Assembly (NCBI RefSeq): GCF_054482595.1
Contig: NZ_CM137008.1
Strand: one strand, 5' to 3'
DNA length: 64,000 nt
Position 1 is the stretch's first letter, and the number at the start of each line of letters is the position of its first letter. Shown one piece after another: positions 48,001-51,000 of the stretch. Made by a program: the position numbers.

Positions 48001-51000
48001 TCATCACAGTGAAATCGTCATACATCGTTACGGTACCGGCGCGATGGTGTTGTGCTGGCACTGCGACAACCAGTTGCGTGACCAGACATCCGAATCACTC
48101 GGGCAACTTGCTCATCAAAACCTGTCAGCATGGATGATTGACGTCATACGCCATGCAATGAATGGCACGCAGGAGCGGGAATTGTCGCTGGCTGAATTAT
48201 CCTGGTGGGCGGTCTGCAATCAGGTGGCGGACGCGCTTCCGGAGGCAGTATTACGTCGTTCTCTGGGGTTACGTGCGGAAAAAATCCGCTCCTTGTACCG
48301 CGAAAGCGACATCGTACCGGGAGAGCAGACCGCCACCAGCATACTGAAGCAGCGCACAAAAAATCTTGCGCCGTTGCCTCATGCCCACCAGCAAAACCCG
48401 CCACAGGAAAAGACGGTGGTCAGCATTGCCGTTGATCCGGAGTCACCGGCTCAGTATCTCCAGCGCCAGAAACCACAACAGGAAGAGATGCCTGTATACA
48501 CGCGTTGGGTAAAAACGCAGAAATGCATGACGTGCGGTAATCAGGCAGATGATCCGCATCACATCATTGGTCATGGACTGGGAGGGATGGGAACAAAGGC
48601 TGATGATTTGTTTGTTATTCCGCTGTGCCGTAAATGTCATAACGAACTGCACGCCGGGGTAAAAGATTTTGAAGAAAAACACGGCAGCCAGCTGTTGTTG
48701 CTGATTCGTTTTTTAATGCACGCGAGAAATTCGGGTGTCCTGAAGTGGAAAGCATGAATGACTGAACGCATAGAATTTGTTTTGCCTTACCCGCCGACGG
48801 TGAATACCTACTGGCGACGTCATGGCAATACGTATTTCATCTCGGAAGCCGGAAAGCGTTATCGCCGTGATGTGGCGCTAATTGTTCGCCAGCAGCGGCT
48901 GAAATTAAGCCTGTCCGGAAGGCTGGCGATAAAGATTATTGCAGAGCCACCGGATAAGCGCCGCCGCGACCTGGACAATATCCTGAAGGCACCACTGGAT
49001 GCGCTGACGCATGCCGGACTACTTATAGACGACGAGCAGTTTGATGAAATCAATATTGTGCGCGGTCAGCTCGTTCCTGGTGGGCGGCTGGGGATAAAAA
49101 TCACAGAACTGGAGTGCGCATGAATAACCAGTATTTACAGTTTGTGCGTGAGCAGCTCATTATCGCCACCGCTGATTTGAGTGGGGCAACAAAAGGTCAG
49201 CTTGAAGCCTGGCAAGAGAATGCCATGTTCGATACAGGGCGTTACAGGCGAAAAAAAATCCGGTACCGCGATGAAGTGACTGGAAAAATGATAACGCGGG
49301 ATAATCCACCAATCCCGGGAAAGCAATCGCTGGCGAAGGGGACGTCAATTCCTCTGGTCAGTCCGGTTGAGTTTTCGACATCATCGTGGCGGCGGGCTGT
49401 TCTGTCTCTTGAAGAACATCATAAAGCCTGGTTGTTGTGGTGTTACAGCGGGAGTATTTGTTGGGAATATCAGATCGCGATAACACAGTGGGCGTGGAAT
49501 GAATTTAATACTCAATCCGGTACCAGAAAAATTGCAGGGAAAACGCAGGAACGCCTGAAAAAATTAATCTGGCTGGCGGCGCAGGCAGTAAAAGCAGAAC
49601 TTTTTGGTGGGGAAGGTTATGAATACCAGGAGCTGGCATTACTGGCGGGAGTGACAACTAAAAACTGGTCCAAAACATTTACTCGTCACTGGGTTGCAAT
49701 GAAACACATTTTTCACCGACTGGATAGTGAGGCTTTATTGTTTGTAATGAGAACACGTTCAAAACAAAAGACGGCATTTTCAAAGCAAAGTGTTGCAAAA
49801 GTAGATTGAAAGGCATATATTTCATGCAAATCTGATATTTTGCCGATTTTGTACGTGATGGCAAAAGCAAACAAAACCCGCCCACAAGCGGGTTTTTTGT
49901 GCCACTTATCTCGGATAGGCATGGTGAATGCGCTGGTGGAGGAGATAAGGGTGATTTTTAACCAGGTGATTTTTGAATGCTTGCAACATTGATTTCGTAA
50001 CATTATTATCCTGCGCCCGGCCCTTTAGCTCAGTGGTGAGAGCGAGCGACTCATAATCGCCAGGTCGCTGGTTCAAATCCAGCAAGGGCCACCAACCGCC
50101 ACTAGCTCATCAGGAAAGAGCGTCAACCCTTTAAGTTGAGTGTGCGAGGTTCGAGTCCCCGGTGGCGGTCCAGTGCCGACTTAGCTCAGTAGGTAGAGCA
50201 ACTGACTTGTAATCAGTAGGTCACCAGTTCGATTCCGGTAGTCGGCACCATATGCGGGCATCGTATAATGGCTATTACCTCAGCCTTCCAAGCTGATGAT
50301 GCGGGTTCGATTCCCGCTGCCCGCTCCAGTTAGAGTCTTTCAGTCTGCGATGATGGGAAATCCCGGAGTGACTGAAAGACGTTTAAGTTATGAATGATCG
50401 CCTTTTTTTGCAAAATTGCTGTGCAGAAATACTAACCTTCGAGCAGGCGATCATTCATAAGCACTCTGCTTTTATTCCGATTAACTGTGGGTGGTTTGTT
50501 GGATAGAGTGCTTTCCTTTCTGTATATATCGTTTCGCCCGCTTTTGCGGGTTTTTCTTTTCAAATCCCTTTCATTTCTCAGTGTAAAACTACGCCATCCG
50601 TTATTTGCGGAGGTGAGGCTATGAAATCCATGGACAAAATTTCAACGGGCATTGCCTACGGCACCTCCGCAGGCAGTGCTGGCTACTGGTTTTTACAGTG
50701 GCTTGATCAGGTCAGTCCTTCACAGTGGGCTGCGATTGGTGTACTGGGGAGTCTGGTTCTGGGCTTCCTGACTTATCTGACAAATCTGTACTTCAAAATC
50801 AGAGAAGACAAGCGTAAGGCTGCACGGGGAGAGTAATTCAATGACTCAAAACTATGAACTGATTGTGAAAGGGATCCGCAATTTTGAGAATAAAGTTACG
50901 GTAACTTTAGCGTTACGGGACAAAAAACGCTTTGACGGCGAAATTTTTGACCTGGACATCTCGCTGGACCGTGTTGAAGGTGCCGCGCTGGAGTTTTATG

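Follow-up and report, generated by a model that had tools for sequence, protein, structure and literature searches.

A C33 tRNA gene with a lysine anticodon in the tRNA array of an Escherichia coli lambdoid prophage

The tRNA array and its second gene

The window analyzed here is a stretch of 64,000 nucleotides (nt) of contig NZ_CM137008.1 (NCBI RefSeq assembly GCF_054482595.1), and its subject is a short tRNA array in a lambdoid prophage of Escherichia coli, above all the second gene of the array, tRNA2. By ARAGORN, the window has nine tRNA genes; four of these, found also by the Rfam tRNA model, stand in tandem on the + strand at 50019–50328, between the late antiterminator gene Q (49114–49809) and the holin gene (50621–50836), which confirms the four-tRNA phage cluster between a Q-like gene and the lysis cassette reported in a preliminary description of this DNA. 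The Rfam scores of tRNA1 to tRNA4 are 72.5, 44.4, 73.8, and 64.9 bits, respectively (E-values 5e-8 to 4e-16 in a local search; the gathering score of the model is 29 bits), and the spacers separating the genes, by direct reading of the sequence, are 1, 2, and 3 nt long.

tRNA1 (50019–50094, anticodon CAU) is of the ileZ type (tRNA-Ile2), in keeping with its earlier assignment as Ile2/Met-like; it is labelled tRNA-Ile by the Prokaryotic Genome Annotation Pipeline (PGAP) and is identical to the gene annotated as ileZ in Stx2a_F349, a Shiga toxin (Stx) converting phage. tRNA2 (50096–50172, anticodon UUU), denoted Lys* below, has an argN-family scaffold with C33, the A51·C63 pair, U73, and an encoded CCA. 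tRNA3, Thr(UGU) (50175–50250), and tRNA4, Gly(UCC) (50254–50328), are exact copies, at 100% identity each, of thrU and glyT of E. coli K-12. Thus, the comparison with the host thrU-tyrU-glyT-thrT operon that had been proposed earlier yields a likeness in these two genes; the prophage array differs from the K-12 operon in having no tyrU, no 116-nt spacer, and no thrT, and its thrU and glyT copies lie 3 nt apart behind a candidate phage promoter (see below). We take tRNA1 to be the phage ileZ, with tRNA3 and tRNA4 captured from the host.

Direct reading of tRNA2 gives CCGCCAC-TA-GCTC-ATCAGGAAA-GAGC-G-TCAAC-CCUUUAA-GUUGA-GUGUG-CGAGG-UUCGAGU-CCCCG-GUGGCGG-U-CCA, a complete cloverleaf with a 7-bp acceptor stem, a 4-bp D stem, 5-bp anticodon and T stems, and a 7-nt anticodon loop. 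It departs from the standard in C33 instead of the U-turn nucleotide U33, in a single T-stem mismatch, A51·C63, and in the discriminator U73, the first two of these having been correctly noted before; it keeps U8, A14, G18 G19, A21, U54 U55 C56, A58, a purine at position 37, and the encoded CCA. A standard isotype together with a high score had been named earlier as what would speak against a non-canonical second tRNA. The isotype is indeed standard, as ARAGORN calls tRNA-Lys(UUU) and the exact sequence is labelled tRNA-Lys by PGAP; the score is not high, 44.4 bits being above the gathering score and the lowest of the nine tRNAs of the window (57–74 bits for the rest). Positions 34–36 read UUU, a sense anticodon for lysine codons, which excludes the suppressor tRNA suggested as one of the possibilities; the decoy and the pseudo-tRNA suggested along with it are retained below as rival readings.

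Apart from the anticodon, tRNA2 lacks A73 and any relationship to the host lys genes: it has U73, an acceptor stem beginning with C1-G72, and an argN-like body, and its anticodon stem (TCAAC/GUUGA) shares no pair with that of the host tRNA-Lys (GUUGA/UCAAU; host sequence from PMC11464382). The loop has the regular 7 nt, C33 being its sole abnormality, whereas sister genes in the same slot of other arrays have loops of 5–6 or 8–9 nt. U33 is seen in all 137 other unique non-scaffold tRNAs of the fetched loci with one exception, an ileZ-like gene in the first slot (L135:2548-2621, − strand) with the loop CCUAUAA, that is, an Ile(UAU) with C33. No recurrence of the latter was seen in other arrays, and it is a singleton in IMG/VR. 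Minimum-free-energy folding gives no cloverleaf for most of six sequences, a genuine ileZ included, and is hence uninformative.

tRNA2 aligns end to end with argN of Stx phages at about 90% identity. The loop has changed from CUUCGAA to CCUUUAA; the changes in the anticodon stem preserve pairing (G30-C40 to A30-U40 and U27·G43 to U27-A43), and two acceptor wobbles of argN have become Watson–Crick pairs (G3·U70 to G3-C70 and U7·G66 to C7-G66), while the A51·C63 mismatch is common to both genes. Canonical Arg(UCU) and Arg(CCU) members with the same scaffold score 52–56 bits, and PPompW phages have an array of intermediate type, CAU-Lys*-Arg(UCU). Judging by sequence, tRNA2 is an arginine tRNA of phage lineage (the argN/Arg-UCU scaffold) re-coded from UCG/UCU to UUU, and not a chance wreck.

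The ileZ-argN-argO array of Stx-converting phages (Stx2a_F349, AP012530) occupies the same position downstream of Q, as anticipated in the preliminary description and confirmed by comparison with Stx2 phages; its ileZ is likewise first and identical, the promoter-like sequence is conserved, and its second gene has the same scaffold with A51·C63. The differences are that in the Stx2 phage the array is followed by stx2AB, and here by lysis genes; that the second and third genes are arginine tRNAs (UCG, UCU) there, and here a UUU homolog followed by the Thr and Gly copies that replace argO; and that the loop of the second gene is CUUCGAA (UCG, U33) in argN and CCUUUAA (UUU, C33) in tRNA2. The pair G3·U70, a classic alanine identity element, is found both in argN of Stx2a_F349 (L001:1643-1719) and in Lys* of PPompW (L002:1733-1808), while the window copy has G3-C70.

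The scaffold family and the Lys* lineage

In prophages of many Enterobacterales genera, the slot following ileZ holds a single scaffold with the acceptor CCGCCAC/GUGGCGG, conserved D and T arms, and CCA; IMG/VR and GTDB examples of the scaffold are L135:2470-2545, L126:4094-4170, L240, and L263. It occurs as canonical Arg(UCU), Arg(CCU), and Arg(UCG) tRNAs and, in addition, in a large and odd class whose loops have 5, 6, 8, or 9 nt, e.g., TAAAT, TTAAT, CCAGGT, CAGGAT, and CTTGAG. A scan of GTDB finds the scaffold in Pluralibacter, Edwardsiella, Hafnia, Enterobacter, Lelliottia, Cedecea, Citrobacter, Buttiauxella, Yokenella, and Ewingella, and in Salmonella enterica subsp. arizonae and diarizonae. 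This widespread family, with its hypervariable anticodon loop, includes tRNA2 as a re-coded homolog of argN, a relationship missed in the preliminary description.

Comparison of 79 unique scaffold sequences shows hardly any variation in the acceptor, D, and T stems; the anticodon stem is retained via Watson–Crick and G·U changes, and there are 43 different loops of 5–9 nt. The pair 51:63 is A·C in 38 sequences, G-C in 22, A-U in 17, and G·U in two. A·C is therefore the commonest state of this pair in the family, and we reject the idea that the T-stem mismatch is a degeneration peculiar to tRNA2; the oddity pointed out earlier is present in tRNA2 but is shared by argN and many relatives. CCA is encoded in 169 of 169 copies (in a sample not anchored on tRNA2 itself), and the body differs by about 2.9 mismatches per 68 nt even where flank identity is 60–80%.

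The odd class has 36 loops in 51 unique sequences, with a body divergence similar to that of Lys*, and includes 39 pairs of genes with identical bodies and different loops; the odd-loop members tested are not reported by the Rfam tRNA model. Loops rarely differ where the flanks are at least 98% identical, and in the odd class they differ in 59–67% of pairs at 90–98% flank identity. By our estimate, this exceeds the difference expected from flank divergence and would mean fast loop turnover, but mosaic recombination confounds the comparison. A search for complementary partners of the odd loops within 4 kb gives no signal, with 314 sites vs. 277 for loops taken from other loci.

In E. coli, near-identical copies of tRNA2 are found in 797 of 5,426 complete genomes, of which 278 are exact. 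Lys* also matches more than 120 IMG/VR contigs and is present in the deposited phage genome records 606R7, 689R5, PhiR47_1, Evi, and PPompW. The array types seen in IMG/VR are CAU-Lys*-Thr-Gly (96), CAU-Lys*-Arg(UCU) (13), and ileZ-argN-argO (seven).

Diversity was assessed in 94 Lys* copies anchored only on the neighboring genes. Here, the anticodon stem, the D loop, and the T loop are invariant, and in the anticodon loop only position 32 varies; the variation is located in the acceptor 5' strand, at U8, and in the D stem. Diversity per site is 0.021 for Lys*, 0.001 for ileZ, 0.012 for Thr, and 0.031 for Gly. All 18 body variants keep C33-UUU-A37-A38, and a U33-UUU version of the scaffold has no matches in an IMG/VR search. 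C33 is fixed in Lys*. Compared in this manner, the loop of Lys* appears constrained, and that of the odd class free or diversifying.

One copy, L153 (IMG/VR UViG_646862326_000012), lacks the 3' strand of the anticodon stem and the variable loop, leaving 73 nt between ileZ and Thr, and is clearly a pseudogene within the lineage. Annotation of Lys* is inconsistent across records and needs attention: the common E. coli variants are left unannotated by PGAP (RefSeq matches H68–H89). In the phage records (ON470580.1 and PV340566.1), a sequence identical to tRNA2 is called tRNA-Lys for PhiR47_1, but is not among the tRNA features of 606R7.

The cluster type is already known and the gene is annotated in RefSeq. 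For the C33-UUU gene and the hypervariable-loop scaffold we found no paper: no description of either was found in the open-access literature, which is weak evidence of absence.

Possible roles of tRNA2

The reading that we tentatively favor is that tRNA2 may be a lysine decoder, charged by lysyl-tRNA synthetase (LysRS), that would go unrecognized by host-directed tRNA nucleases. Charging with lysine would be expected, given that LysRS recognizes its tRNA mainly by the UUU anticodon. As for the nucleases, AriB of the PARIS system cleaves host tRNA-Lys(UUU) between positions 40 and 41, the cut being abolished by U39A and inhibited by A41C, and a tRNA-Lys variant of phage T5 resists AriB and rescues infection (PMC11464382, PMC12409363). 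All three stem determinants differ between Lys* (G39 U40 U41) and the host tRNA (U39 C40 A41), so that the anticodon stem of Lys* would be predicted to escape AriB. Escape from PrrC is plausible as well, because PrrC requires N6-threonylcarbamoyladenosine at position 37 or its cyclic form, (c)t6A37, as a passage of PMC12409363 states with reference to Bacusmo 2018, and because U33C on tRNA-Met(i) abolished t6A formation by E. coli TsaBCDE (PMC8887486); hence C33 should prevent the modification in Lys*. Phages are known to be rescued from PrrC170 by a phage tRNA-Lys (PMC11555353).

The rest of the array fits the same scheme. The P2 OLD tRNase excludes lambda, with the strongest depletion seen for Thr(UGU) and Gly(UCC), and these are the two host genes copied into the array; its Lys(UUU), Thr(UGU), and Gly(UCC) all belong to the targets that have been published for AriB and P2 OLD. 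Codon need is a weak explanation: the AUA, ACA, and GGA codons are not enriched in the late genes of the prophage.

The closest functional parallel is provided by the nuclease-resistant tRNA-Lys(UUU) of other phages (T5 against PARIS/AriB; SP15 and others against PrrC170), which are likewise phage-encoded, have the UUU anticodon, and differ from the host in the stem at the AriB positions. However, the T5 tRNA-Lys is canonical, with U33, A73, and a fully paired T stem, and belongs to a virulent phage with a large tRNA set, whereas Lys* has an Arg scaffold with C33 and U73 and belongs to a temperate phage, its resistance being predicted only. A well-known natural tRNA with C33 is the cytoplasmic initiator tRNA-Met of eukaryotes, where C33 also stands beside an anticodon reading a codon that starts with A. 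It is unrelated to Lys* in lineage and in role (initiation), and although bacterial and yeast enzymes fail to form t6A37 in the presence of C33 (PMC8887486), the t6A machinery of multicellular eukaryotes tolerates it.

Several observations weigh against a resistant lysine decoder. The T5 tRNA-Lys retains U33 and A73 and is resistant, hence C33 and U73 are unnecessary for resistance and may lower decoding and charging; poor decoding would be expected of a tRNA-Lys(UUU) lacking t6A37. Normal decoding is impossible for the sister lineages found in this slot, with their loops of 5–6 or 8–9 nt. The Thr and Gly copies, being identical to the host genes, should by their sequence be cleavable, and E. 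coli Thr(UGU), when overexpressed, gave no phage rescue from OLD. Within Lys*, the low variability of the anticodon arm carries little statistical weight, with about 3.5 variable sites expected and one observed (P ~0.14 by our own arithmetic from the counts of the 94-copy sample). Finally, most E. coli copies are body variants, having either U8C together with U4 and U11 or a 1-nt deletion in the D stem, and both the U4/C8/U11 and the D-stem-deletion variants are not reported by Rfam at the gathering score.

Phage tRNAs have recently been recognized as counter-measures to tRNA-cutting immunity (PARIS, PrrC, retron-Eco7, OLD, HepS), the proven cases coming almost all from large virulent phages such as T5 and T4. 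Lys* belongs to a temperate phage found in roughly one of every seven complete E. coli genomes; it has a foreign body and a nearly unique loop change, and its escape from both main lysine-tRNA nucleases is predicted from the published determinants. If this prediction is correct, resident prophages would shape which tRNA-cutting defenses work in natural E. coli, and C33 would be a simple, portable way of hiding a tRNA from t6A-dependent enzymes.

On the unlikely side, and still to be weighed seriously, is the alternative that tRNA2 is a tRNA-like RNA that does not decode and is selected for its tRNA shape (the acceptor, T, and D arms and CCA), acting as a decoy or sponge for defense or modification enzymes that bind tRNA or, more prosaically, as an RNase P handle by which its neighbors are excised from the precursor. 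The near-invariance of the scaffold body across genera with CCA kept, combined with 43 loops of 5–9 nt and with the 39 identical-body pairs differing in the loop, is what one would expect in this case, as is the failure of the Rfam tRNA model to report both the odd-loop members tested and the common Lys* variants. C33, being a t6A anti-determinant (PMC8887486), agrees with it too. However, the loop of Lys* is far steadier, relative to the change in the body, than that of the odd class, hence its sequence seems to matter; and no co-varying partner site of the loop was found within 4 kb. Of the specific roles, an RNase P handle is consistent with the neighboring tRNAs lying just 1–3 nt away, but a pure handle would need neither a conserved anticodon stem nor a D arm; for a decoy, the one tested case, the tRNA-Thr of Bas32 against OLD, supplemented the host pool and was not a competitive inhibitor.

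There are precedents for such RNAs in phage tRNA arrays. The tRNA region of T5 contains annotated "tRNA-like stable RNAs with unknown functions" (RNA1, RNA2, and RNA3), tRNA-shaped genes with no assigned decoding role that resemble the odd-loop members; they have no sequence relationship to Lys*, which, unlike them, keeps a regular 7-nt loop and a readable anticodon. The species 1 and 2 RNAs of T4 are likewise tRNA-like stable RNAs in a phage tRNA cluster. If tRNA2 does not decode, the scaffold family would be a natural experiment on the role of a tRNA body lacking a meaningful anticodon. A broader proposal, speculative and rather unlikely, is that the second slot may hold a hitherto undescribed family of phage tRNA mimics across Enterobacterales. 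Processing, stability, or protein binding would account for retention of the body, and the hypervariable loop would confer specificity in an arms race against defense or modification enzymes that target tRNA; Lys* would represent the family in E. coli, its loop fixed as an imitation of the lysine anticodon loop, bound by such enzymes but neither modified nor cut.

Decay of tRNA2, as an argN relic carried along between useful tRNAs, seems unlikely, though it too is a serious rival. Its score, the lowest in the window, and the combination of C33, A51·C63, and U73 are suggestive of decay, and damaged variants are frequent (U8C, the D-stem deletion, and L153 lacking the 3' half of the anticodon arm). 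The diversity of tRNA2 can be read both ways: 0.021 per site is high compared to ileZ (0.001), but is within the range of its genuine neighbors Thr (0.012) and Gly (0.031). In a relic, however, one would not expect stem changes relative to argN that preserve or even improve pairing (as in G3·U70 to G3-C70 and U7·G66 to C7-G66), a scaffold body conserved across genera whose flanks are unalignable, or C33-UUU fixed in hundreds of genomes.

We consider it very unlikely that tRNA2 is an ordinary extra lysine tRNA supplementing codon usage in lysine-rich phage genes. Lysine codons are indeed more frequent in the prophage, at 64 and 65 per 1000 in late and early open reading frames (ORFs), respectively, vs. 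38 in the chromosomal part of the window, and both PGAP and ARAGORN call tRNA-Lys; but E. coli already has six tRNA-Lys(UUU) genes, with AAA and AAG being common codons, the rare codons read by tRNA1, tRNA3, and tRNA4 show no enrichment in the late genes, and supplementation leaves unexplained an Arg body with C33 when a host lys gene could have been copied just as thrU and glyT were. Finally, it is highly improbable that tRNA2 is a slippage-prone lysine tRNA tuning what looks like a programmed −1 frameshift to the tail chaperone fusion G-T, even though gene G (60771–61157) ends with the slippery heptamer A-AAA-AAG (61148–61154), both slip codons of which are read by tRNA-Lys(UUU), the T-frame ORF 61169–61459 lies in the −1 frame, and under-modified tRNA-Lys shifts frame more easily, since tailed phages without such a tRNA commonly have A-AAA-AAG or G-GGA-AAG sites. 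The slip site is reached by just two fetched loci, too few to test for an association with Lys*.

Transcription signals and prophage context

A candidate promoter of the tRNA operon, TTGCAA-17-TATTAT, lies on the + strand at 49981–50009 (hexamers 49981–49986 and 50004–50009) and ends 9 nt before tRNA1, with the GC-rich stretch CCTGCGCCC between. The −10 hexamer (50004–50009) is invariant across 83 related loci, while neighboring bases vary, and the promoter-like site upstream of tRNA1 is also conserved in Stx2 and PPompW phages; a promoter belonging to the cluster itself, as proposed earlier, is plausible. Further upstream, a consensus scan only gives a PR'-like late promoter candidate, TTGCAA-17-TATATT (49793–49821, + strand), which overlaps the end of Q and whose position suggests PR'. 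It is followed by a terminator-like hairpin, the candidate tR', at 49867–49902: an inverted repeat, CCCGC/GCGGG, with an A-run upstream and T6 downstream (stem 49877–49892, T run 49893–49898). The hairpin scan reported it on the − strand only, and the reading on the + strand comes from direct inspection of the sequence. Together, the promoter and the hairpin could yield a leader RNA of about 70 nt, as at PR'/tR' of lambdoid phages. The leader (49825–49898) has sub-threshold matches to the Salmonella prophage small RNAs (sRNAs) isrK (22.7 bits; gathering score 50) and isrJ (24.5 bits; gathering score 37).

Downstream of the tRNAs, two perfect inverted repeats on the + strand at 50335–50460, of 11 nt (50335–50345/50370–50380) and 16 nt (50388–50403/50445–50460), have no match in Rfam, and the region varies strongly between related loci, some of which have the STnc100 sRNA family downstream of the array in place of the repeats. 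An intrinsic-terminator-like hairpin with a T run (50533–50560, + strand; hairpin 50536–50551) precedes the holin gene. The order of elements is Q, a PR'-like promoter whose short leader ends at a terminator-like hairpin, the second candidate promoter, the four tRNAs, another terminator-like hairpin, and holin, an anatomy that fits a self-contained tRNA operon placed in the late-operon leader of a lambdoid prophage. Transcription of the tRNAs could start at their own promoter in the lysogen; once the prophage is induced, they could also be made by read-through of Q-modified polymerase.

The prophage extends from about 36.2 kb onward, with the integrase gene directly beside serU, tRNA-Ser(CGA) (36108–36197). 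Integration beside serU makes it unlikely that tRNA2 is the integration site. The prophage contains the integrase gene, dicB/DicF, hok/sok, a DUF968 gene, rusA, and Q; the latter is a 231-aa ORF on the + strand, the identical RefSeq region being annotated as "bacteriophage antitermination protein Q". The tRNAs are followed by the holin gene (class II, + strand), which starts the lysis cassette, then by the lysozyme, Rz, and HNH genes, a P27-type terminase, an HK97-type head, and a lambda-like tail. The sok antitoxin RNA (46264–46439) scores 112 bits, hokD being annotated in the matching RefSeq record, and the DicF sRNA (40623–40674) scores 76.7 bits.

The E. coli chromosomal part of the window contains four asn tRNA genes, the yersiniabactin island, mtfA, and serU; the island is flanked by the asn genes, which are four identical copies of tRNA-Asn(GUU) (15648–35116). 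Elsewhere in the prophage, a heptamer TTTTTTC at 58825–58831, near the end of the ORF 58568–58873 and with a 131-codon open −1 frame, was flagged by a crude frameshift filter in the window and in four related loci, and is probably merely an overlap with the next head gene.

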